Shown piece by piece: positions 266-20,363 of a stretch of DNA of 45,926 nucleotides. Made by a program: the position numbers and the translations under genes. Positions within the stretch are counted from its first letter, which is position 1; every line of letters starts with the position of its first letter. The stretch lies in the IMG/VR virus record IMGVR_UViG_3300029483_000015. The stretch is one strand, 5' to 3'. The notes beneath the pieces are model-generated. The model was not told the DNA's origin. It saw nothing but the letters and a program-made list of their open reading frames with translations, and did not search any database. Source of the stretch: a virus.

Positions 266-1621
266 ATGCCTAGAGTTGCAGAGAGGATGACAGAAAAGCG
301 CCTGCGGAGCCTGACGAAAGGTTGCTCCTGCGGCGTCGTTCCCGGCCTTGAGGTGCGCGTGCGCACACTGGGCGACGGGAGCACAGCAAAGTACTTTCTC
401 CTTCGGGACCGCGCGACGGGAAAGGCGTACCAGATCGGGCAATACCCGAAAGTCTCGCTCTCCGATGCTTTCAAGACTGCGGCCGAATGGCGGGAAAAAA
501 TTAAGGCGGGGATTGATCCGGTTGCGGAGAGAAAAGCGCTGCGCATGTCTCTTCAGGCTGAAGAGCCCGCGCCTGCTGTTCTAACTGTCCGGGAGATGGT
601 CTACGGGTGGATTCGGTTCAATGAGGAGCGCGGGAGATGGAAGAACGCTCGCAAGCCGAAGGAGCGCGTATGGGATGGGTACTGCAACAACCACTTCTCG
701 CCGGACTTTCTTTCGATGCCGGCGAAGGACGTGACTGCTGAGCGTCTTTACGATGAGTTGGGGGAGAAGTGGCGCACCATGATCGATACGCCGGAGAGGA
801 TTCTGAGCGATATGCGGAACGCTTTCGACTGGGCGATGCGGCAGGAGATGATTCCCATAATGATGAATCCGGCCCGTGTCGCGGGCGGGAAGCTCGGCGA
901 TATGCTGTCCCTCGCTCGTCCCGAGGGCGGGCACGAACCTGCGCTGCCGCCTAAGCGCATGCCGGCTTTCTTCGCTGAACTGATGAAGCTCGTGCCGCGC
1001 AGTCAGTCCGCGCGCTGTCTGGCCTTTGCCATTCTCACGTCAGCCCGCAATTCGACCGCCAGAGAGGCCACGTGGGACGAGATTCAGCAGGACGATGAGG
1101 GCCAATGGTTCCACGTCATCCCGCGCGAGCGGATGAAAATGAAGTCCGACAAGATTCCTTTTGACCGGAAAACGCCTCTCTGCGCTCCGGCGAAAAGTCT
1201 TCTGGATACCGCTCCGCGCTTCCCGGGCGAAGGCCGCAACTTCATCTTCCCGAACATCAATCAGGGCAACTTATTGCCCTTCTCGCTTGATGCGGTTCGC
1301 TCTCTACTGAAGAGAATGCACGACAAGCAGCGGGCGATCGACGGCATAGGTTGGGTCGATCCGGAGCAAAAGGCGAAGGACGGCAAGCCGAGAATTGTCA
1401 CCCTTCACGGTCTGGCGCGGGCCACTTTCAACACGTGGGCGAAGGACGCGAAGGGTTATGGTCACAAGTCTTTCTCCCGCGACTTGCGGGAAAGCTGTCT
1501 CGATCACCGAAACGAGAGCTATCAGTGCGCCTATGACCGCGAGCAGGCTCTGGGCGACATGAGAGAGGTTTATGACGCTTGGGGAAAATATTGTTGTTCA
1601 ATGTTGACAACAACTCCCTAA
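266..1621 (+). CDS. int: Tyrosine integrase, P4-type
   Basis: 451 aa. The N-terminus (GLEVRVRTLGDGSTAKYFLLRDRATGKAYQIG) is typical of the P4-integrase arm-binding domain. C-terminal catalytic-domain motifs (TLHGLARATFNTWA, CAYDREQAL). Adjacent to att. GGAG before the ATG. Confidence 0.9.
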   Translation: MPRVAERMTEKRLRSLTKGCSCGVVPGLEVRVRTLGDGSTAKYFLLRDRATGKAYQIGQYPKVSLSDAFKTAAEWREKIKAGIDPVAERKALRMSLQAEEPAPAVLTVREMVYGWIRFNEERGRWKNARKPKERVWDGYCNNHFSPDFLSMPAKDVTAERLYDELGEKWRTMIDTPERILSDMRNAFDWAMRQEMIPIMMNPARVAGGKLGDMLSLARPEGGHEPALPPKRMPAFFAELMKLVPRSQSARCLAFAILTSARNSTAREATWDEIQQDDEGQWFHVIPRERMKMKSDKIPFDRKTPLCAPAKSLLDTAPRFPGEGRNFIFPNINQGNLLPFSLDAVRSLLKRMHDKQRAIDGIGWVDPEQKAKDGKPRIVTLHGLARATFNTWAKDAKGYGHKSFSRDLRESCLDHRNESYQCAYDREQALGDMREVYDAWGKYCCSMLTTTP

Positions 1622-1674
1622 GTGATATGATTTTACCTAATCAGTGAATTCGCTGATTCAAAGAGGAAAACAAG

Positions 1675-2034
1675 ATGAAGATTAGTGAGTATGGCAAGCT
1701 TGTCCGAAAAGGTCGGATAGATGCGGGCATAACCATGCTCGATATGGCAAAAAGCATGGGAGTTTCTCCATCTTTTCTCAGTGCAACTGAAGTCGGCACG
1801 AAGAAAATTTCCGACGATTTCCTGAATCGAGTGATCGAATTTTTCGCCTCCAAAGGAATCCACATCAGCGGTATTAGAGAAGCCGCTGACGTGTCAAACA
1901 AGGCGGTTTCTTTGGAGGGACTCTCTACCACTCAGCAATTCCTTGTCGCAGGGTTTGCTCGTGCAAATATGTCAAAAGATCAACTCGATGCCTTTGTAAA
2001 GTTATTAGCTGGCACAAAAAAGGAGGCTAAATGA
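1675..2034 (+). CDS. XRE-family helix-turn-helix regulator
   Basis: 119 aa. GKLVRKGRIDAGITMLDMAKSMGVSPSFLSATEVG is a classic HTH_XRE. RBS AGAGGAAAA upstream. Visibly AT-richer than the rest of the phage. Confidence 0.8.
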   Translation: MKISEYGKLVRKGRIDAGITMLDMAKSMGVSPSFLSATEVGTKKISDDFLNRVIEFFASKGIHISGIREAADVSNKAVSLEGLSTTQQFLVAGFARANMSKDQLDAFVKLLAGTKKEAK

Positions 2035-2552
2035 GTGGACACGGATACAAAGTACCCCCTCGATCCATTAGGAATATTCGGGAAATCGCTGAGGAAGTCC
2101 GCAAAATCGTAGGTGATCCGAGAAAAAATATAGGAATGTTTCTGGAAATCTTACTATTCCAGGGGAAGTTGGATGTGGTCGAGGATAACGATCGCCGGTT
2201 AGCACGGGATGTTGAGGCAGTTTTCATCCCAAATGATCAATGTATTCGCCTTAGAAACCGGGACTATGAGGCGGTAATAACCGGTTCAAACAGAAGATCT
2301 TTATTTACGTTCTGGCATGAGTTCGGTCATATGATCCTGGGGCATGAAAGAACATTCAATCGCGAAGAGTCACAAGAACATAAAGCGTATGAAGACTCTG
2401 AGTGGCAAGCCAACACTTTTGCTGGGGAAATTCTGATGCCGCTTCCAGTTATTGACGAAGAAAATTTGAAGACGCCAAACGTGATTGCGGAAAGGTTTGG
2501 TGTTTCTTACGCAGCTGCCACGTCTAGGCTAAGACAGCTGAAACGAATATGA
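2031..2552 (+). CDS. ImmA/IrrE-family (COG2856) zinc metallopeptidase
   Basis: 173 aa with the HEXXH motif (FWHEFGHMILGHE). ATGA overlap with the XRE gene. Confidence 0.8.
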   Translation: MSGHGYKVPPRSIRNIREIAEEVRKIVGDPRKNIGMFLEILLFQGKLDVVEDNDRRLARDVEAVFIPNDQCIRLRNRDYEAVITGSNRRSLFTFWHEFGHMILGHERTFNREESQEHKAYEDSEWQANTFAGEILMPLPVIDEENLKTPNVIAERFGVSYAAATSRLRQLKRI

Positions 2553-2848
2553 GAAAGGCGCTGAAGAAGTACCAATTCTGCAGCGCCTATAGGGTGTCGC
2601 GAGCGAGTCACCCTTTGATGTCGGTTTCAAGACTCCTTCATTATCAGTGTGAAGGTGCTCGGCGTCAAGCTCATAGCTCGCTCGTGGAGATTTGCCATAT
2701 GGCTCATCCCACGAAGAAGGCCCGAAAGGGCGTAATGAAGCTCGTGTTTTGCACTGTTTATCGTCATTGGCGTACAGGGAAGTTAATGCGAGCTTCTGAT
2801 TATGGCTACAAGGCTTGGCCGTTTAAGGTTAGAGTCCCTGTAGTTTAA
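2549..2848 (+). CDS. Hypothetical basic protein, translationally coupled to the ImmA-like gene
   Basis: 99-aa ORF whose ATG overlaps the ImmA stop (ATGA). It is the only ORF of 60 aa or more across this stretch. No recognisable domain. Confidence 0.35.
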   Translation: MRKALKKYQFCSAYRVSRASHPLMSVSRLLHYQCEGARRQAHSSLVEICHMAHPTKKARKGVMKLVFCTVYRHWRTGKLMRASDYGYKAWPFKVRVPVV

Positions 2849-2857
2849 CCGCAATAA

Positions 2858-2888
2858 CCCCGCCAGCACGACGCTGAGCGGGGTTTTG
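2858..2888. terminator. Hairpin terminator between convergent units
   Basis: CCCCGC-N14-GCGGGG followed by TTTTG. Lies between the plus-strand module and the stop of the minus-strand AlpA-like gene. Confidence 0.6.
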
Positions 2889-2889
2889 C

Positions 2890-3150
2890 TTACGCAGTTT
2901 CTTTCACTTGCTCCGTATGGTTGCCTATCAGTGGAGTGGTGGCGGGTTCAAGGTTTGCAACCCACTTTTGGATGTCTTCAGCTTTGAATCGAGCAACCTT
3001 AGGACCAAAGTAAACCGGTCGCGGGAAGGTGCCCAGCTTTACTAGTTTCCAGACGGTTGATGTTCCGATCCCACAGGAGGCTGCTACTTGTTTGACATCA
3101 AGCATCAATACCCCAATGGGAGATATGTCAGTAGTATTCCTAGCTCTCAT
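2890..3150 (-). CDS. alpA: AlpA-family DNA-binding protein (excisionase / prophage regulator)
   Basis: LDVKQVAASCGIGTSTVWKLVKLGTFPRPVYFGPKVARFKAEDIQKWV matches the AlpA/MerR-like HTH family. Start moved to the ATG at 3150, which has AAGGAG 8 nt upstream. Confidence 0.8.
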   Translation of the reverse strand: MRARNTTDISPIGVLMLDVKQVAASCGIGTSTVWKLVKLGTFPRPVYFGPKVARFKAEDIQKWVANLEPATTPLIGNHTEQVKETA

Positions 3151-3389
3151 TTTGTGATCTCCTTTTGTTCGTAGCAGCAAGATGAGCTTTCAGTGCCCTC
3201 ATCTTCGAGCTCTTTGATTCGTCTTTCAATTAACACGATGAATGCAATGGTGTTTTGAAGGGCTTCGCCTTCTTCGATCAGTTCTTCAGCCCGTTCTCTA
3301 CATACCTCGATGTCCGAGTAAGGCAGGCACAAACGTAGCCTGCTTCCTTGTTCTCTCAGTTCGTCGATGGTGAGTTCATTAAAGTCCAT
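3147..3389 (-). CDS. Hypothetical acidic protein
   Basis: 80-aa ORF in an operon with neighbouring genes. 4-nt overlap with the alpA-like start. Confidence 0.5.
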   Translation of the reverse strand: MDFNELTIDELREQGSRLRLCLPYSDIEVCRERAEELIEEGEALQNTIAFIVLIERRIKELEDEGTESSSCCYEQKEITK

Positions 3390-3410
3390 CGTTCTTCTCC
3401 GACTATTTCT

Positions 3411-3764
3411 TCAAAGCTCAGGTTTCTTCTTGTTTCCGCGCTTTCTATCAAGCTCACGCCGATAGAGCTCGGTTGCAGCGATTGCGATAGAACGTGCGCA
3501 GCTCTTTCGTGAAACCTCACGCCGGTGATCTCCTTCATGGATGAAGATCGCCATTCGAGTGAGCATCTCTGCAAGGATCGTCCAGAGGCCAGTATCGGCA
3601 GTCTTTTTTCCTCGCACCGCAGCTTTCATTTGCAAGACACTAAATTCCGTCACCAACAGCATTGCGTACATGTATTCACGCAATGCATCAGACTGGCTTG
3701 TCTCAGCGTCTTTTGCATACTGCGTTAGGGTTCTCAACGATGAGAGGGGGTAGTTGCTACTCAC
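3411..3764 (-). CDS. Hypothetical protein
   Basis: 117-aa ORF in the early-left operon. No motif recognised. Confidence 0.5.
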   Translation of the reverse strand: MSSNYPLSSLRTLTQYAKDAETSQSDALREYMYAMLLVTEFSVLQMKAAVRGKKTADTGLWTILAEMLTRMAIFIHEGDHRREVSRKSCARSIAIAATELYRRELDRKRGNKKKPEL

Positions 3765-13761: not shown

Positions 13762-13844
13762 ACTTCCATTCAAATTTAGATCTAGTCCGCACTGCGAGTA
13801 AATGTTCCCTGTGGGAGCCTTAGTCGTACCCGGAAGGAACGTGA

Positions 13845-13874
13845 AGCCCGATCTGAAGAGACCGGGCTTTTTTG
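13845..13874 (+). terminator. Rho-independent terminator (tR'-like) before the late operon
   Basis: AGCCCG-N12-CGGGCT followed by TTTTTT. Confidence 0.6.
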
Positions 13875-13908
13875 ATGCCGGAATAAGTAGCGTCGAAATA
13901 CATAACAT

Positions 13909-13937
13909 TTGCAAAAATGCTAACCTCATGGTAGAAT
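13909..13937 (+). promoter_or_regulatory. Near-consensus sigma70 promoter of hicAB
   Basis: TTGCAA, 17 nt, TAGAAT, with an extended -10 TG. Confidence 0.6.
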
Positions 13938-13966
13938 ATTCACGTGTTCAACCAATAGAGGAGATC

Positions 13967-14164
13967 ATGAAGCAAAGTGAATTTCTTCGGTGGCTTAAGT
14001 CGAGAGGCGTTGAGGTCACCCACGGAACCAGACACCTTCGCCTGAGAGTCCCGGGGAACCCAAAAACGCAAACCATGCCTCGACACCCCGGCGCAGAGAT
14101 GAATGAAAGTATCCGCAAGGACATCATTCGCGATCTTGGCCTGAAGGAAGTCTCTAAGAAATAA
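13967..14164 (+). CDS. hicA: HicA mRNA-interferase toxin
   Basis: 65 aa. MKQSEFLRWLKSRGVEVTHGTRHLRL...MPRHPGAEMNESIRKDIIRDLGL matches the HicA family. GAGGAG RBS. Confidence 0.85.
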   Translation: MKQSEFLRWLKSRGVEVTHGTRHLRLRVPGNPKTQTMPRHPGAEMNESIRKDIIRDLGLKEVSKK

Positions 14165-14218
14165 AACACACCCCCGCCTTAGCCGGCGGGGCTTGCTGCA
14201 TGATCGTATGTCTGACAA

Positions 14219-14644
14219 ATGTCAAATTTCGATTTTCCATGCCGCTTTGAAAAGCTTAAGGACGGCACTGAGATTGTTCGTTGCCGGGATCTGCCCGAAC
14301 TTCTGTCATATTCCGTGGATGGCGAGCCTCTTGAAAATTGGGCCCGTTATGCCGTCGAGGATTGTGTCGAGTTCCGTATTAAAGATGGAGAACTTATTCC
14401 GGAGGCGTCACCTGCGCTTCCCGGTGAATATGTTGTTCATCTGAGCGCAAATCAGGTTGCAAAAATTCTGCTTTCAAATGCGATGGCGCGCGATGGTGTT
14501 TCTCGCGTCGAACTCGCTAAGAAGGCCGAACTGAAGCTTCCTGAAGTGACGCGGATTCTCGACGTTCGCCATCCTACGAAGATCGACCGTATTGAGGCCA
14601 CTCTTCGGTCACTCGGCCATAGGCTTCAGCTGTCGATTGCCTAA
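14219..14644 (+). CDS. hicB: HicB antitoxin (HicB fold plus C-terminal HTH)
   Basis: 141 aa directly after hicA. The C-terminal LSNAMARDGVSRVELAKKAELKLPEVTRIL is an HTH. Confidence 0.8.
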   Translation: MSNFDFPCRFEKLKDGTEIVRCRDLPELLSYSVDGEPLENWARYAVEDCVEFRIKDGELIPEASPALPGEYVVHLSANQVAKILLSNAMARDGVSRVELAKKAELKLPEVTRILDVRHPTKIDRIEATLRSLGHRLQLSIA

Positions 14645-14705
14645 AATCAAACCAGGACCGAACCAGCTTTTCACTTTGCTTCACTGGTTCCGGGTCCTGA
14701 GCACA

Positions 14706-14741
14706 AGGGCTTCTCTCCGGAGAGGCCCTTTTCTTTTTGGG
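14706..14741 (+). terminator. Terminator after hicB, preceded by a second long hairpin at 14653-14699
   Basis: GGGCTTCTC-TCCGGA-GAGGCCC followed by TTTTCTTTTT. Confidence 0.55.
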
Positions 14742-14783
14742 GTAGGACGATGCCTGAAGTTCCACAAAAGAAAAGGAGGTGCT

Positions 14784-15284
14784 ATGGCATCAAAACCGAA
14801 CGCCTCCAAGGGCGGAAGACCATCAACCTATACGCCGGAGCTTGCGGAGAGAATCTGTGATTTGATTCGTGAAGGCAAGTCAGAGCGTCAGATTTGCAAG
14901 ATGCCTGGCATGCCGGATGCGGTAACTCTTCGCAGATGGAAAGACACCAATCCAGAGTTTTGCACTCACTCCGCGCGCGCGCGCGAAGCAAGCGCCGAGA
15001 AGTTCAACGATGAATTGCTTGAGCTTCAAGCAAATTTGAACAATGAACTGCAGACGCGATTGCTGAACGGCGATGACTTTCCGAAGGGAACTGTTGAAGC
15101 CTTCAAGGTGCTGATGCAGGAGAAGGCTCGCCAGATTTCGTGGCGTGATGATTCGCGCTACGGCGATCGCAAGACCGTGAAGATTCAGAGCGACACGCCT
15201 GATCTTTCCACGATCGACATGGAAAAGCTCAAGGCCGCAAGAGAGTTGCTGTATGACGAGACTCCCGACACTGATCGAACTTGA
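14784..15284 (+). CDS. terS: Terminase small subunit
   Basis: GGRPSTYTPELAERICDLIREGKSERQICKMPGMPDAVTLRRWKDTNPEFCTHSARAREASAEKF is the common TerS HTH family. AAAGGAGG RBS. Overlaps the terL start. Confidence 0.8.
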   Translation: MASKPNASKGGRPSTYTPELAERICDLIREGKSERQICKMPGMPDAVTLRRWKDTNPEFCTHSARAREASAEKFNDELLELQANLNNELQTRLLNGDDFPKGTVEAFKVLMQEKARQISWRDDSRYGDRKTVKIQSDTPDLSTIDMEKLKAARELLYDETPDTDRT

Positions 15285-17637
15285 TCAGGAGATTGCGCGG
15301 CGCAGCCTGTCCGAGTTCTGCAAGATGGCATGGCACGTGCTCGAGCCTGCTACACCGATCAAGTGGGGGTGGGCGCTCGATGCAATGTGCGAGCATCTCG
15401 AGGCAGTGCATAACGGCCAGATCAAGCGCCTTCTGATGAACGTTCCGCCGGGCATGATGAAATCACTGCTCACTGGCGTCTTCTTTCCTGCTTGGGAATG
15501 GGGCGCAGGCGGAAATCCTTCTCTGCGATATCTGACAACTGCGCATAAGGAAGACCTCGCAATCCGAGACAACCTGAAGTGTCGACGCTTGATCTCCTCC
15601 GATTGGTATCAGGAGCGATGGAGCGTCGAACTGTGCGGCGACCAGAACGCAAAGAAGAAGTTCGAAAACACGGCTACTGGCTTTCGTGAGTCTATGGCTT
15701 TCCGAAGCCTCACTGGCTCTCGAGGCGACCGCATCATCATCGACGACCCGCTGAGCGTAGACGACGCCTTTTCAGAGGCCGCGCTCTCCGCTGCGGAGCA
15801 GACCTTCCTAGAGGCCGTTCCGTCCCGTGTGAACAACCAGGACTCGGCGATCATCGTCATCATGCAAAGGTTGCACGAGCGCGATACGGCCGGGATCATC
15901 CTGAGCCGCCAGCTGGGCTATGAGCACCTGATGCTCCCAATGCGCTTCGAGCCGGAGCGCCGGTGCGCGACATGCATCGGCTTCACGGACCCGCGCACTG
16001 AGGACGGAGAGCTACTCTTCCCGGAGCGCTTCTCCGAAGCGCAAGTCTCCGAGATGGAGCGAACGATGGGCTCTTTCGCGACGGCCGGCCAGCTTCAGCA
16101 GAGACCGATGCCGCGCGGCGGTGGGCTCTTCAAGTCCGACTGGATTCAGCACTGGGACAAGCTCCCGGAGCGCTTCGACGCGGCCGTTATCTCGTGGGAT
16201 ATGACTTTTAAAGAGTCCGCGACATCCGACTTCGTGGTCGGGCAGGTGTGGGGACGAAAGGACGGCGCTTTCTACCTCGTCGACCAGTTCCGGGGACGCT
16301 GGGACTTTGTGAAGTCGCTCGAGCAGTTCGTCGCGGCGGCAAACAAGTACCCGCGCGTGACTCGCAAGCTCGTGGAAGACAAAGCGAACGGGTCGGCGAT
16401 CATCGCGACGCTCAAGAAAAAAGTGTCGGGCATCATCCCGATCACGCCAAAAGAAAGCAAGGAAGCCCGAGCGAACGCAGTTACGACGCTCTGGGAGGCC
16501 CGGAACGTCTATCTGCCGCCTCCGGACCGATACCCGTGGGTGGCGCAGGACTTCATCCCTGAGCTCCTCGCATTCCCGTCTGGCGCTCACGACGACCAAT
16601 GCTTTGCGGCCGGGACTCTGATCGCCACGCCGTGGGGCGACCGCCCTATCGAAAGCCTTAAGGCCGGAGACCACGTCATCACCCCGATGGGGATTAAGCG
16701 AGTCTTGGTTGCCGGGATGACCGGCGAGGCCGAGACGATCACGAAGTACGGCATCACGGCGACAAAGGATCATCCTTTCCTAACAAGGAACGGGCGTTTC
16801 AAGGCTTTCTGTCAAGTTACGGAGAACGAATGCTTGGGGTTGACACTTCGCCAAATGACCGAGGCGAGCATCCTAATCTCGTCCAGTTCGACGGCATCAC
16901 GTATCGGCTTCTATCGAAAGGCCGGTATTACCTCAGCCAGTCAACCACGAACGAGGGGCGGAAAGGCGCGAAAGGCCTGCACGTCGCTATCTGGGAGAAA
17001 TACTCTGGGCAAAAAGTCCCTCCCGGCTGGGAGGTTCACCATAAGGACGGCAACCCGTTTAACAACGAATTCAGCAACCTTGATTGTCTATCGCGCAGCG
17101 AACACAGTAAGACGATCAATCGCAAGACTGAAAGGGTTCGCCGAAACCTTGACCGGATCAGGCCTCTCGCGTCCGCTTGGCACAGAAGTGAGGCTGGACG
17201 CGCTTGGCACAGGGAGCACGCGAAGCAACCCAAGTCCAAGCAAGAATGCAACTGCCTCTGTTGCGGGAAGCCCTTCCTCGCAAAAAGAGCTGACGCCAAG
17301 TATTGCTCTAGGAAATGCGAAGTCAAATACCGTTACGACAACGATGCGAGGCCAGAAGAACGGGCCTGCGTGGTCTGCGGAGCAAACTTCACGGCTCTCG
17401 TCGGCCCGTACCGGAAGAGAACTGCTGTCACGTGCAGTAGAAAGTGCCGGGGCATCTGGCGAGTTCGGAAGCAGGCAGCCAGTCTTCAATCTGATGATTG
17501 AGGACGCGCACTGCTTCTATGCCAACGGTCTTCTCGTTCACAACTGCGACGCGATGACCCAGGCATTGACGGATCTAAATAAGCACAGCGGCTTGCATAT
17601 CGATCCGACGAATCTAGCTTACTTACTTGGACGGTAG
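15253..17637 (+). CDS. terL: Terminase large subunit precursor containing an intein
   Basis: The 794-codon ORF has an N-terminal ATPase and a C-terminal nuclease (..AHDDQ / CDAMTQALTDL). It is interrupted by a Hint-type insert at 16600-17544. The predicted spliced product is 479 aa. Confidence 0.85.
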   Translation: MTRLPTLIELDQEIARRSLSEFCKMAWHVLEPATPIKWGWALDAMCEHLEAVHNGQIKRLLMNVPPGMMKSLLTGVFFPAWEWGAGGNPSLRYLTTAHKEDLAIRDNLKCRRLISSDWYQERWSVELCGDQNAKKKFENTATGFRESMAFRSLTGSRGDRIIIDDPLSVDDAFSEAALSAAEQTFLEAVPSRVNNQDSAIIVIMQRLHERDTAGIILSRQLGYEHLMLPMRFEPERRCATCIGFTDPRTEDGELLFPERFSEAQVSEMERTMGSFATAGQLQQRPMPRGGGLFKSDWIQHWDKLPERFDAAVISWDMTFKESATSDFVVGQVWGRKDGAFYLVDQFRGRWDFVKSLEQFVAAANKYPRVTRKLVEDKANGSAIIATLKKKVSGIIPITPKESKEARANAVTTLWEARNVYLPPPDRYPWVAQDFIPELLAFPSGAHDDQCFAAGTLIATPWGDRPIESLKAGDHVITPMGIKRVLVAGMTGEAETITKYGITATKDHPFLTRNGRFKAFCQVTENECLGLTLRQMTEASILISSSSTASRIGFYRKAGITSASQPRTRGGKARKACTSLSGRNTLGKKSLPAGRFTIRTATRLTTNSATLIVYRAANTVRRSIARLKGFAETLTGSGLSRPLGTEVRLDALGTGSTRSNPSPSKNATASVAGSPSSQKELTPSIALGNAKSNTVTTTMRGQKNGPAWSAEQTSRLSSARTGRELLSRAVESAGASGEFGSRQPVFNLMIEDAHCFYANGLLVHNCDAMTQALTDLNKHSGLHIDPTNLAYLLGR
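16600..17544 (+). other. Intein (315 codons) within terL
   Basis: Starts CFAAGTLIATPWGDRPIESLKAGDHV, has block B TKDH, and ends VFNLMIEDAHCFYANGLLVHN followed by Cys+1. Confidence 0.8.
16830..17501 (+). CDS. HNH endonuclease ORF nested in the intein in the +2 frame
   Basis: 223 aa. GLHVAIWEKYSGQKVPPGWEVHHKDGNPFNNEFSNLDCLSRSEH is an HNH_3-type motif. Two CxxC..CSRKC repeats. GGAG lies 5 nt before the ATG. Confidence 0.75.
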   Translation: MLGVDTSPNDRGEHPNLVQFDGITYRLLSKGRYYLSQSTTNEGRKGAKGLHVAIWEKYSGQKVPPGWEVHHKDGNPFNNEFSNLDCLSRSEHSKTINRKTERVRRNLDRIRPLASAWHRSEAGRAWHREHAKQPKSKQECNCLCCGKPFLAKRADAKYCSRKCEVKYRYDNDARPEERACVVCGANFTALVGPYRKRTAVTCSRKCRGIWRVRKQAASLQSDD

Positions 17638-17646
17638 GCACAACTC

Positions 17647-17889
17647 ATGCAACCTGAACTGACGTTACGCGCTTGGGGCGCTTTGATCATCTTGTATGCC
17701 ATAGGCGCGTCGGTGGCCATATTCGCAATTGCAAAGGCAGTTGAGGCCGTTGTCGACTTGGTCGGGCATGTGCGGTGGCAGGCCGCAAGGCGCCGCGTTT
17801 TCCGCCGATTCCTGAGCGAATGGCGCAAAGTGGAGATTAAGCATTGTGAGCAAGAAGAAAAGAAAGACGGCGAAAGCCCAAGCGCCTAA
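17647..17889 (+). CDS. Small membrane protein
   Basis: 80 aa with an N-terminal TM segment (WGALIILYAIGASVAIFAIA). Confidence 0.45.
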   Translation: MQPELTLRAWGALIILYAIGASVAIFAIAKAVEAVVDLVGHVRWQAARRRVFRRFLSEWRKVEIKHCEQEEKKDGESPSA

Positions 17890-19450
17890 CGGCAATTTCC
17901 TCGCGCAGGCAAAGCGCATCGCCGCGCTTGAGGAGATCGACCGCACGCTACGCACGCCGCCGCAAGCCACTCAGCTCTTCGAGACGGTCGAGAAGGTGAG
18001 GGAGCGTTTCGCCCCTCCGGTGACTCTCGGGGTGTCTGAAAAAGAGCGCCTAGCGCAAGATGAGGCACTTTCTGACGCGGGCTTTTATGGCGCCATTCAT
18101 CGCAGCCTTCAGCAGCACGGCTACGAGCTCGGGCAGTACCCAGTGACCTCTTTCGTCGGTTACGGCGCGCTTCAGCAGATCGCGCAGAACGGCATGATCC
18201 GTGCCTGCGTGCAGACCGTTGCGGATGATATTACCCGCGAGTGGATTACGATCACGGGCGATGACGCGGAGGCTGTTGAGGAGATTCAGACACTTCAAGA
18301 AAAGAAGTACCACCTACGCAAGCTCTTTCATGAGGCCGCAACACTAACCGGATACATGGGCGGGGCTTTTATCTACGTCGACACCGGCACGGAAAATCCC
18401 GAGTTGCCCCTGCGCTACTCAAACGAAAGCGCAGAGCTACAGCCGGGTACGAAGCTCCGGTTTGTCGTGGTCGATCCTGTGAACGTATCGCCTGGCGACT
18501 ACAACGCCATCGACCCGCTCAAGCCCGACTACCTCAAGCCCCGCTACTTCTGGGTGCTGGGAACGAAGGTGCATGAGTCGCGCCTGCTTAGGCTTTTTGA
18601 CAATCCGCCGCCGACGCTTCTGCGACCGGCATACAACTTCCTCGGCATTCCGCAGGCTCAGATCCTCTGGGACTACGTGATGCACTGGAATCAGTGCCGG
18701 GTCTATACGGCCGACTTGGTGCGCAAGGTCTCGCTTCTCGTTTTCCAGACGAGCACGGATGACATCTTCAACTCGCCTAACGGGGTGCAGTTGTTCGACA
18801 TCCGCATGAAGGCGCTTCAGCGCTATCGCGATAACAACGCCGTGTTCGTCTGCGACAAGGAAGGCGAAAGCGTGATGAACGTGCAAACGTCAATTGCGGG
18901 CTGTACGGACGTCGTGCGCCAGTCGCTCGAGATGATTGCGTCGATCAACCGCACGCCTGCCGTGAAGCTCTTGGGCATCAGTCCTAGCGGCTTCAACGCA
19001 ACGGGCGAAAGCGATATTCGTAACTACTACGATTACATTCGTTCCAAGCAAGAGCTGCGTCGCGAAGCAATTAACACTTGCTTAGAGGCAATCGAACTAG
19101 TCGAAATGGGGAGCATCAATTCGAATATCTCCTTCGACTTCAACGAATTGAGCAAGGAAGATGAAGCCAGCGCGGCCATGACCGCTCAGACGCGCGCAGG
19201 CGCTCTTGCAACGCTTGCACAAGTTCAGGCAATCAGCGCAGAGGAAATGCGCGAAGCGGTCAAGAAAGAGCCGGCGATGCACTTGGGCTTTTTGAGTGAC
19301 GAGGTGCCCGAAGGGGAGCCTGAGGATATCGAGGGCTTGCTTGGCGCGCTTCAGCAGGCTACGACCGCAGTGGCAGAACCTGCTCCAGCATCGAACCCGC
19401 CCGACGAATCGCGGCAACTGCTTCAGTCCCTAGGTGGCTTGAATGGCTAA
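17846..19450 (+). CDS. Portal protein
   Basis: 534 aa directly after the terminase. The region FVGYGALQQIAQNGMIRACVQTVADDITREW resembles DUF1073-type portals. GTG start. Confidence 0.75.
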   Translation: MSKKKRKTAKAQAPNGNFLAQAKRIAALEEIDRTLRTPPQATQLFETVEKVRERFAPPVTLGVSEKERLAQDEALSDAGFYGAIHRSLQQHGYELGQYPVTSFVGYGALQQIAQNGMIRACVQTVADDITREWITITGDDAEAVEEIQTLQEKKYHLRKLFHEAATLTGYMGGAFIYVDTGTENPELPLRYSNESAELQPGTKLRFVVVDPVNVSPGDYNAIDPLKPDYLKPRYFWVLGTKVHESRLLRLFDNPPPTLLRPAYNFLGIPQAQILWDYVMHWNQCRVYTADLVRKVSLLVFQTSTDDIFNSPNGVQLFDIRMKALQRYRDNNAVFVCDKEGESVMNVQTSIAGCTDVVRQSLEMIASINRTPAVKLLGISPSGFNATGESDIRNYYDYIRSKQELRREAINTCLEAIELVEMGSINSNISFDFNELSKEDEASAAMTAQTRAGALATLAQVQAISAEEMREAVKKEPAMHLGFLSDEVPEGEPEDIEGLLGALQQATTAVAEPAPASNPPDESRQLLQSLGGLNG

Positions 19451-20363
19451 ACGCATCAAGACGATCCCCGCGATCGAGCCGAATGCCGGGCTCAAGGCGG
19501 CCTTGCAAAAGCGGCTGATTGCTCTCATTGAGAAACAGACGCGCGAGGCAACGGCCGAGCTCCTGCGCAACCTGATCGATTCGGGCTGCTTCACGCAGCC
19601 TGTCGAGACGGTTGTACAGGACGCCGCACTGTGGGGACGCAAAGAGAAAAAGATCATAGATGAGGCGATACGCGCTTTCAAAGCGTCTAATCCCGCCGAT
19701 GCCGCTCGAAAGCTTGACCTGAGTCTCGCCGAGAAGATGGCGCGGTGGATGATTCACGCGGGAGAAAGCGCAAAGCTCGTCTCGGGATGGTTTGTCCGCG
19801 CAATGGCGCAAAACGTGACAGCGAGCCAGCGGCGTGCGCTGATACGCGCGGGCATCACTCCTACTCTGCTCAAAGAAAAGTGGACGATCCCTATCGTCAA
19901 GAATCGACACATGGCGCCGAGCACAGCAAAAGCGTTGCCGGGGATTGTGGACGGCATGACGGGGCTCATCACCAAAATGCAGGCGGATGACCTCGCCAGA
20001 GTGCGAGAGACGATTACACGCGGCCTCTACGAGGGTCAGAGTCTGGGAGAGATCGAAAGCGTGCTGAAAGCCTCTAAGGGCTTCACGGAGACCCGTGCCA
20101 AGCGAGTTGCGCTTGATCAGTCGATCAAAGTCAGTCAGGGCATCCAACGCGGCAACGCCGAGGCATTGGGCATCAAGCACGCGGTATGGGTTCACGTCCC
20201 GGGGCGGTATTCATCACGCGAGACGCATGTCGCAATGGACGGCAAACGCTTCGACCTTTCCGAGGGGCTTTACGACCCGGCTGTAGGCCAGAACGTAACG
20301 CCCGGGTTGTTGCCGTTTTGCCGATGCATTTTCCGTCTAGATATATCGGACATTATCAAATGA
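19443..20363 (+). CDS. Head morphogenesis protein (Mu F / SPP1 gp7-like)
   Basis: C-terminal VWVHVPGRYSSRETHVAMDGKRFDLSEGLYDP...PGLLPFCRC matches the Mu F family. Confidence 0.8.
   Translation: MAKRIKTIPAIEPNAGLKAALQKRLIALIEKQTREATAELLRNLIDSGCFTQPVETVVQDAALWGRKEKKIIDEAIRAFKASNPADAARKLDLSLAEKMARWMIHAGESAKLVSGWFVRAMAQNVTASQRRALIRAGITPTLLKEKWTIPIVKNRHMAPSTAKALPGIVDGMTGLITKMQADDLARVRETITRGLYEGQSLGEIESVLKASKGFTETRAKRVALDQSIKVSQGIQRGNAEALGIKHAVWVHVPGRYSSRETHVAMDGKRFDLSEGLYDPAVGQNVTPGLLPFCRCIFRLDISDIIK

Follow-up and report, generated by a model that had tools for sequence, protein, structure and literature searches.

A candidate mobile intein in a phage large terminase gene, with its HNH endonuclease encoded in a second reading frame

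The large terminase gene (terL) in a 45,926-nucleotide stretch of viral DNA (IMG/VR record IMGVR_UViG_3300029483_000015; hereafter the window, meaning that stretch at its full length) is interrupted by a 315-codon insert that we interpret, with a probability of about 0.8, as a mobile two-gene parasite of terL in which a splicing intein is combined with a separately translated homing endonuclease of the HNH type. The observations that carry this interpretation are the anatomy of the insert, a presence/absence polymorphism among related terL alleles, junctions located at the insert itself, a pattern of selection that differs between two frames of the same DNA, and the viability of cultured phages with the same arrangement. 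Comparisons were made across 154 sequences, namely the window and 153 loci (L numbers below) fetched through two viral-contig scans, one genome-contig scan, contig look-ups and GenBank phage records, with at most 80 and 35 loci taken, respectively, from IMG/VR and GTDB scans for the HNH family.

In the list of open reading frames (ORFs) as in the raw sequence, terL is a single uninterrupted ORF of 794 codons on the + strand (15253-17637), whose exteins match Terminase_6C and TIGR01630 in profile searches. The N-extein (15253..16599, +; 449 codons) closes with ...FPSGAHDDQ, that is, with H446-D447-D448, all three invariant in a 22-sequence TerL alignment, followed by Q449. The insert (16600..17544, +; codons 450-764) continues in the terL frame without interruption, starts with CFAAGTLIATPWGD and has the motifs of a class-1 intein: the nucleophile Cys1 at 16600 in block A (CFAAGT), a TxxH block B with TKDH at intein residues 55-58 (T55-K-D-H58; 16762-16773), and blocks F and G (PVFNLMIEDAHCFYANGLLVHN), which end in ANGLLVHN, with the His-Asn pair directly followed by Cys+1 at 17544/17545. 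Hint_2 matched insert residues 1-32 (34.7 bits; cut-off, 28.4) in the N-terminal splicing lobe (16600..16829, +), which is conserved among relatives, and TIGR01443 intein_Cterm matched the last 23 insert residues (24.7 bits; cut-off, 15.6) in the C-terminal splicing lobe (17473..17544, +). The C-extein (17545..17637, +) then resumes with Cys+1 DAMTQALTDL... and comprises 30 codons plus the stop. Deletion of the insert in silico leaves a TerL of 479 amino acids, and natural 479-residue alleles exist that lack exactly this segment. By contrast, the ~215 residues between the two lobes in the terL frame matched no family in profile searches, and the 315-residue intein used as a protein query in that frame gave one weak match only, and no diverse intein set was obtained. 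The G+C content (GC) of the insert is slightly lower than that of the adjoining extein (0.53-0.58 vs 0.60-0.64). An AlphaFold2 model of the precursor, built from the same number of sequences as the TerL alignment and used solely for contrast with the nuclease model described below, has beta strands at host residues 456-518 (N lobe) and 741-754 (C lobe). We infer from the intact motifs, from the position of the insert beside the invariant HDD of an essential gene, and from its occurrence in cultured phages that the terL precursor would undergo protein splicing.

Profile searches of both frames placed the intein models in the terL frame and the nuclease in another. The insert contains, on the same strand and in frame terL+2 (= terL-1), an ORF for a 223-residue HNH protein (16830..17501, +), preceded by a Shine-Dalgarno-like GGAG (16821..16824, +) 5 nucleotides (nt) before its ATG. 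The ATG lies within host codon 526, 76 codons after Cys1, and the stop within host codon 750, 14 codons ahead of the splice junction. HNH_3, a Pfam family that includes phage homing nucleases, matched only in the non-terL frame (50.5 bits, E 1.6e-13; cut-off, 24.8 bits) and was the sole Pfam family matched at E<=0.1, with no Endonuclease_7 match in the ORF; PHROG 15471, 'HNH endonuclease', also matched (3e-37). The predicted catalytic core occupies HNH residues 49-93 (16974..17108, +), and two CxxC...CxxxC zinc-ribbon-like modules follow at 17253..17447 (+; C142/C145/C159/C163 and C180/C183/C202/C206). Across 49 sequences, H51, H70, H71, D73, N79 and all eight cysteines were invariant and H92 was conserved in >=90%. 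An AlphaFold2 model of the HNH protein, from an alignment of the same size, was confident (mean predicted local distance difference test score, pLDDT, 91.4; predicted template modelling score 0.54) and elongated, with an N-terminal beta sheet, the HNH core, a helical hairpin and two zinc-ribbon-like hairpin pairs. The only solved structure matched by sequence was that of the nicking homing endonuclease I-HmuI (PDB 1U3E), encoded in phage group I introns, and this match was weak and restricted to the HNH core (E 0.007).

The first-pass annotation of the window, made from the letters alone, had given the same positions for terL, the insert, the HNH ORF and the GGAG, and had described a true intein, a nuclease ORF in a separate frame, a linker with no recognisable domain and a TerL of ordinary size once the insert is removed; all of this is borne out by the ORF list, the profile searches and the natural alleles. 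Because nucleases of the HNH_3 type such as I-HmuI are typically intron-encoded, the insert might instead be removed at the RNA level, as a group I intron carrying an HNH ORF. Alternatively, it might be retained in the protein, since out-of-frame HNH insertions without splicing domains exist (the ShiLan insertion; PMC11855218). Blocks A, B, F and G, Cys1, His-Asn and Cys+1 are, however, located exactly as the ends of a spliced intein would require, and no Rfam family was matched at E<=1 within the insert or anywhere over 16000-18000, the region scanned. Moreover, an intron needs no open terL frame, yet the frame stays open, and, with the insert lying one residue past the invariant HDD, its retention would probably disrupt the site. 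Group I introns were also looked for, and not found, in L147, L150 and L151, relatives of the split or free-standing type, and we attach barely any credence to removal as RNA or to retention.

The change of frame near both ends of the nuclease raises a more trivial explanation, one that a single window cannot exclude: two compensating indels could have displaced the ordinary in-frame HNH domain of a canonical intein. The comparative data have already refuted this, and we leave it next to no probability. The same two-frame layout is present in ~40 near-identical 794-residue proteins among the matches listed, from many samples, and the layout as such, a contiguous intein with both lobes and an HNH ORF in another frame (nested, from here on), was found in 95 of the 154 sequences, at HNH identities down to ~30% and including the finished genomes of cultured phages. 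No in-frame intein-HNH fusion was found in the 154 sequences, and the 135 HNH homologues collected, nearly all ~130-270 residues long, include none above 363. In the lineages checked, the HNH frame also meets a stop 3-135 nt ahead of its ATG. In the relatives L002, L006 and L005, with HNH identities of 73%, 73% and 60% to that of the window, the terL frame is open across the entire HNH ORF.

Substitutions and stop codons reveal how differently the two frames are constrained. In an alignment of eight HNH ORFs (compared in pairs with 60-74% protein identity), differences per site were concentrated at the third HNH codon position (0.39-0.61, mostly ~0.5) relative to the first (0.19-0.32) and second (0.13-0.24), and the same DNA read in the terL frame gave proteins only 32-52% identical where the HNH proteins were 60-74% identical, from which it follows that the nuclease is the conserved protein and the linker its passenger. 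This overprinted linker (16831..17472, +; host residues ~527-740) is stop-free and without a predicted fold, 60% of it being S, T, A, G or R with an isoelectric point of 11.8, and residues 527-741 of the precursor model have pLDDT <50; the structured nuclease core overlaps this unstructured part of the intein. Over the HNH ORF, the terL frame of the window and of eleven relatives is free of stops (0 in each), as had been noted for the window, and the third frame has 9-21 (15 in the window). When synonymous codons were shuffled within each HNH ORF and terL-frame stops counted, 1.3-2.7 stops were expected in these twelve, with a probability of none of 0.02-0.21 per locus. Extending the test to 73 non-redundant nested loci, which are mutually related and not phylogenetically independent, yielded 0 stops in 72 out of 72 loci whose host frame is HNH+1 (mean expected, 2.4; median P 0.036), and the log10 P values of these related, non-independent loci sum to -112. 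Split and free-standing relatives, on the other hand, have 3-15 stops in the equivalent frame, which equals the shuffle expectation. The remaining nested locus, L130, is the only one with host frame HNH+2, and that frame has 0 stops vs 13.3 expected (P<5e-5), while the usual HNH+1 frame holds 13. Its HNH ORF (2947-3456) is inside a host ORF at 1359-3650, and its closest relatives, L042 and L044, use the usual frame, which therefore implies a frame switch or a second invasion. Nested loci were found down to 28% GC. From these sequence comparisons, the HNH protein is judged to be under purifying selection, and the terL-frame linker to be under a 'no stop codon' constraint only.

Independent translation of the nuclease is suggested by the sequences around its start. 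In all 13 loci inspected (each a lineage), an ATG is preceded ~4-11 nt upstream by a G-rich Shine-Dalgarno-like motif, clear as GGAG, GGAGGA or GAGGAGG in the window clade and L022 and weaker, as G-runs, in L005, L018, L019, L020 and L021. No sigma-70-like promoter was found on the + strand inside the insert. At the other end, the HNH stop is TGA in every locus checked and falls 12-30 codons (13-20 in most) before the C-terminal intein junction. In the window, bases 17473-17501 are consequently doubly coding, for the HNH tail and stop and for the intein C lobe, and the only nuclease part over block F is its low-confidence tail of ~10 codons ending in TGA. Programmed -1 frameshifting from the terL/intein frame could in principle produce an N-extein-IntN-HNH fusion in place of a free protein, as the HNH frame is terL-1, with the same relative frame in 94 of the 95 nested loci, and in the window extends open for 135 nt ahead of the ATG. 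In other lineages, though, the HNH-frame stop lies only 3, 6 or 12 nt before the ATG, which leaves no room for a conserved shift site, and in split and free-standing relatives the same protein is the product of an ordinary gene. Because of these nearby upstream stops and the ATG with its Shine-Dalgarno-like motif in every lineage, independent initiation is favoured, and a frameshift fusion is disfavoured as very improbable.

Evidence for mobility comes from terL alleles with and without the insert. A search with the spliced 479-residue TerL listed at least 40 or so proteins of 794 residues at 96-98% identity, several of them seen on 26-35 contigs each, together with more diverged insert-bearing alleles (72-90% identity, 793-800 residues) and intein-less alleles of exactly 479 residues at 95-97% identity (P0121, P0124 and others). 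All the way from 98% to 72% identity, alleles with and without the insert are intermingled, and at 95-98% identity the two forms, of 794 and 479 residues, occur side by side, as is expected of a mobile insertion containing the HNH gene. The first-pass annotation had predicted a seamless DDQ-CDAM junction in homologues lacking the insert. Its absence from empty alleles is indeed precise, but the junction is not seamless, since these read ...AHDDT-IDAMSQAL... where the window has ...AHDDQ-[intein]-CDAMTQAL... (one empty-site allele includes ...GCTCACGATGACACCATCGACGCGATG..., and that of L031 and L149 reads ...GCTCACGATGACACCATCGACGCGATGAGCCAG...). The residues at -1, +1 and +5 differ between empty and filled alleles and therefore travel with the intein. 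Two intein-less loci match the window on opposite sides of the insert. L031 is 98% identical to window positions 13813-16596 and shows no megablast-level similarity beyond the insert, where an ungapped comparison of the C-extein gives ~77% identity; L149 is 98.3% identical, without gaps, over 17547-20137 and only 82% identical upstream. Both alignments stop <=3 nt from the intein ends (16599/16600 and 17544/17545). To judge from these alignments, the window is a mosaic whose exchange point coincides with the insert. Homing with co-conversion predicts such a mosaic, and so does any nuclease-started recombination at that site. Over longer distances, mean identity between loci is 37% for HNH and 39% for the splicing lobes vs 21% for the last 200 extein residues, and some pairs have an intein and HNH 45-55% identical inside TerLs only 10-20% identical, a contrast indicative of movement among unrelated terminases, or at the least of lobes and nuclease being inherited together.

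These alleles also bear on two readings in which the nuclease is not a homing enzyme. In the first, it would be an inactive relic within a vertically inherited mini-intein, its ORF still open only because it is young. Many inteins do carry decayed nucleases, the activity of this one is predicted from its sequence, and one locus (L030, below) already shows the arrangement decaying. We nevertheless find this unlikely, given substitutions biased to codon position 3, at 0.5 differences per site vs 0.17-0.26 at positions 1 and 2, an HNH identity of 60-74% where the linker in the other frame is at 33-46%, the invariant catalytic His, Asp and Asn and eight Cys in a confidently predicted HNH fold, a start codon with its Shine-Dalgarno-like motif in every lineage checked, an ORF intact over divergence to ~30% identity, and the coexistence of filled and empty alleles among terL genes 95-98% identical. 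The second would have the HNH protein domesticated and kept for the benefit of the phage, as a superinfection-exclusion nuclease or as an HK97-type packaging accessory, the latter having been raised by the first-pass annotation. In its favour, the HNH gene is always in or beside terL, and terminase-associated zinc-ribbon HNH proteins encoded beside terminase genes are known (PMC3592412). Yet an HK97-type accessory should be present in all members of a lineage, and the sister phages L031 and L149, with 98% identical flanks, have neither the intein nor an HNH gene in the terS-terL-portal block, from which we infer that the HNH protein is dispensable for packaging. Furthermore, terS is of the Sf6 type and the head genes resemble those of Mu-F/P22, suggestive of packaging by the headful mode and not at cos sites, and the distribution among close TerL alleles is patchy. 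Domestication accordingly seems to us quite unlikely, although the nuclease might still confer a competitive benefit in mixed infection.

The nested arrangement is widespread. The N-exteins of 64 non-redundant nested loci belong to three Pfam types (Terminase_6N/6C, Terminase_3/3C and T7-type), and the TerLs are often just 9-25% identical to that of the window. The intein lies 16-60 residues from the TerL C-terminus, with two longer exceptions, usually after (H)DD, D..NH or EDH and before (C/S)-x-D-A-x-R-Y or CDA, which we take for the final metal-binding motif in TerL's RNase H-like nuclease domain. Source bins include Nitrospiraceae, Gammaproteobacteria, Ktedonobacterales, Sedimentisphaerales and a Thermoplasmatales archaeon metagenome-assembled genome (MAG), and the HNH family as a whole spans phages of Proteobacteria, Firmicutes and Actinobacteria as well as the contig binned with the archaeal MAG. 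Among cultured phages, contiguous nested loci were found in Clostridium phage phiCDHM19 (C. difficile; terL of 799 residues), Tetrasphaera phage TJE1 (728 residues) and Acinetobacter phage Highwayman (760 residues), with terL annotated as terminase only in all three.

Kinship with free-standing HNH genes and with split inteins, as suggested in the first-pass annotation, was evident within the same HNH family. The nuclease is free-standing in Pseudomonas phage PAE1, where it lies between terL and portal, and, on the opposite strand, in Salmonella phage Shemara, and in Lactobacillus phage CL2 (L150, NC_028835) it separates a TerL-IntN ORF from an unannotated IntC-C-extein ORF (2487-2771; ...DVYNMEVESHHNFAVDGGFIVHN|CMDATRY...), which overlaps the 3' end of HNH. 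This makes the CL2 terL a fractured, split-intein gene, missing as such from the GenBank record. About a dozen metagenomic relatives, mostly AT-rich, are split like CL2; the two clearest split classes average 0.34-0.37 GC and the nested loci 0.47. The host gene is broken in CL2, L103, L104, L110, L116, L123 and L141, as opposed to the one continuous ORF of the window.

The terL locus had been viewed as an unbroken intermediate between a mini-intein and a host gene broken by a free-standing nuclease gene. This idea of a transient stage is not supported, because the nested state is stable and of long standing, keeps one relative frame nearly throughout (94 of 95 loci), and is found in many environments and TerL families, with no in-frame fusion seen. 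We rate it an even chance that the out-of-frame state is instead the selected, long-lived end state of a large, terL-specific 'bipartite' clade of mobile inteins and not a stepping stone to in-frame fusion. In such a clade, splicing domain and nuclease may stay two proteins on one DNA stretch. In-frame fusions of this HNH family appear, from the sequences compared, to be non-existent, and splitting is seen chiefly in AT-rich genomes, in which it is costly to maintain a second frame without stops.

A mechanism that would accommodate these data, with the insert as a mobile intein and nuclease pair, is as follows. Read-through from the terL ATG would produce the 794-residue precursor, in which the N lobe (~75 residues) and the C lobe (~25) would fold together around an unstructured basic loop of ~215 residues. 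Self-excision of the intein would then release the 479-residue TerL with its nuclease active site (HDD...DA) restored. Internal initiation at the GGAG/ATG at 16830, in the -1 frame, would separately yield the 223-residue HNH protein with its two zinc ribbons. On co-infection, this protein would cut or nick an intein-less terL near the HDD-T|I-DA site, and repair from the intein-bearing copy would install the intein, the nuclease and adjacent codons.

Several points weigh against this interpretation. Splicing, internal initiation and the cleavage target are deductions and not direct observations. The flanks of the insert match different intein-less phages, and general mosaic recombination at a nuclease gene could mimic homing. 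The precursor model is poor (mean pLDDT 52.6, 22 sequences), so that 'disordered linker' reflects low confidence, and Foldseek with the HNH model against the PDB returned no match at E<=0.001. The shuffle test for the window itself is weak (P=0.10), its strength coming from many related, non-independent loci. Finally, in L030 (protein P0175) a GTC>GTA change, synonymous in HNH, creates a TAA in the terL frame (2140-2142, corresponding to window 17323-17325, with the change at 17324) and truncates TerL to 690 residues. This is the only terL-frame stop among close relatives and marks either a dead copy or a sequencing error, and it indicates that such mutations arise but are otherwise absent.

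Of the systems known, the closest are the actinobacteriophage inteins with separate-frame nucleases described by Gosselin, Arsenault and Gogarten (2025, bioRxiv 10.1101/2025.01.02.630785), some with nucleases on the antisense strand and, as a first report, with a nuclease of the endonuclease VII-like kind 'in frame 3 relative to the intein', frequently in terL. These authors called the architecture rare and proposed that it originated when a free-standing nuclease gene invaded an intein. The window shares with theirs a complete host-frame intein, often in terL, a same-strand nuclease ORF between the splicing blocks in the same relative frame, and an in-frame middle part without predicted structure. 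The same-strand nuclease of Gosselin et al. is, however, endonuclease VII-like (IPR004211), with its core at residues 1-67, whereas the description of the window nuclease sets it apart, as HNH_3 only, with two zinc ribbons and a core at residues 49-93. Moreover, what they found to be rare is the majority state of this HNH family. In tblastn searches with the window or TJE1 HNH protein, no SEA-PHAGES actinophage was among the best 40 of 501 records, and only 19 records cover most of the query.

The 'fractured genes' of Dassa et al. (2009; PMC2677866) have split inteins with a free-standing GIY-YIG or Vsr-like nuclease between the halves, one such locus being a terminase, and it was only predicted there that HNH nucleases could do likewise. 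CL2, L103, L104, L110 and L116 provide relatives of the window HNH in exactly this arrangement. As in fractured genes, a nuclease of free-standing type occupies the endonuclease site of the intein and the 3' end of its ORF overlaps the start of the C-terminal intein part, but the window's host gene is intact and its intein contiguous. The ShiLan insertion, in which an HNH is 'hidden' out of frame within a mycobacteriophage DNA methylase (Arsenault et al., 2025; PMC11855218), is similar in having an HNH ORF overprinted on a stop-free host-frame insertion and a patchy, homing-like distribution, and how the nuclease is translated is a question common to both. ShiLan, though, has no splicing domain, is thought to be retained in the protein, and starts with GTG with no detectable ribosome-binding site, whereas here full intein blocks flank the nuclease and all lineages checked have an ATG preceded by a G-rich Shine-Dalgarno-like motif.

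Canonical bifunctional inteins with in-frame HNH or LAGLIDADG domains resemble the window in that the nuclease lies between blocks B and F, the target is an active-site motif conserved within an essential gene, and alleles occur both empty and filled. They differ in that the window nuclease, matched by HNH_3 in terL+2 only, is outside the intein polypeptide and has no in-frame relative among those found. As to I-HmuI, the insert contains no intron, and the C-terminal half of its HNH protein consists of two zinc ribbons, unlike the DNA-binding modules of I-HmuI.

In the library searched, nothing specific on the element was found for phiCDHM19, phiCD119, TJE1 or PAE1, or for overprinting or alternative reading frames combined with inteins, and no paper there ties these phages, or this arrangement, to an intein; a paper on crAss-like phages mentions TerL inteins but no HNH. 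The feature is real and non-canonical, and is best filed as a variant of a recently described kind and not as categorically new. The novelty implied by the first-pass annotation needs qualifying, as inteins with separate-frame nucleases had already been reported in bioRxiv 10.1101/2025.01.02.630785. What appears to be new is this HNH family in the role, its size and breadth, the near-constant frame, the quantified avoidance of stops, and the occurrence side by side of free-standing, nested and split forms within one nuclease family.

Some further observations concern relatives and neighbouring genes. In Exiguobacterium phage vB_EauM-23 (L151, MH844558; 765-2940), terL is apparently broken by the same HNH gene, the N part ending in ...EDKNNHSMAA* and a downstream ORF containing ...NQCDATRYAMEM, with no recognisable intein lobes and no Rfam intron match. 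The host ORFs of L069, L076, L113, L136 and L143 are 1113-1194 residues long, with unusually long N-exteins, and the Pfam scan of the 64 N-exteins found Intein_splicing in four and LAGLIDADG_3 in two (loci not recorded), which suggests a second, canonical intein further upstream in some terL genes. Vibrio phages 1.238.A, 1.238.B and 1.245.O (H66-H70, e.g. NC_055735, 5905-6534) have a distant HNH relative (24% identity) under features named 'hedgehog/hint domain protein' and 'terminase large subunit'. These cultured phages probably add one more nested or split case. The Microbacterium phage terminases that match terL DNA just upstream of the insert, as in Terij, proved to be intein-less, and the match was put down to ordinary TerL conservation. 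A HicA/HicB toxin-antitoxin pair lies directly upstream of terS in L005 (907-1564) and L031 (1644-2321), and a HicA-like annotation also adjoins the terminase of Terij. Between terL and portal, the window has an 80-codon hydrophobic ORF (17647-17889, +) that overlaps the portal start and has no PHROG match; ORFs of 62-80 codons occupy the equivalent place in L149 (intein-less), L001, L002 and L006.

The acquisition of homing nucleases by inteins and the origin of split inteins are long-standing questions, to which the answers have come mostly from models (Derbyshire and Belfort, 1998; Dassa et al., 2009). Here, a single nuclease is found in three proposed stages: free-standing (PAE1, Shemara), nested (the window, phiCDHM19, TJE1, Highwayman) and split (CL2). 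Since several family members are cultured phages, splicing, internal initiation, cleavage and homing are directly testable. The insert also offers a clean natural example of overprinting under asymmetric constraint, in which selection acts on one frame for its protein and on the other only against stops. At a practical level, gene callers report terL or HNH and miss small IntC ORFs, so that terminase annotations and terL phylogenies of such phages are often wrong. If the interpretation advanced here is true, every stage of the pathways by which a nuclease gene invades an intein and an intein splits would be available in one family, cultured phages included.

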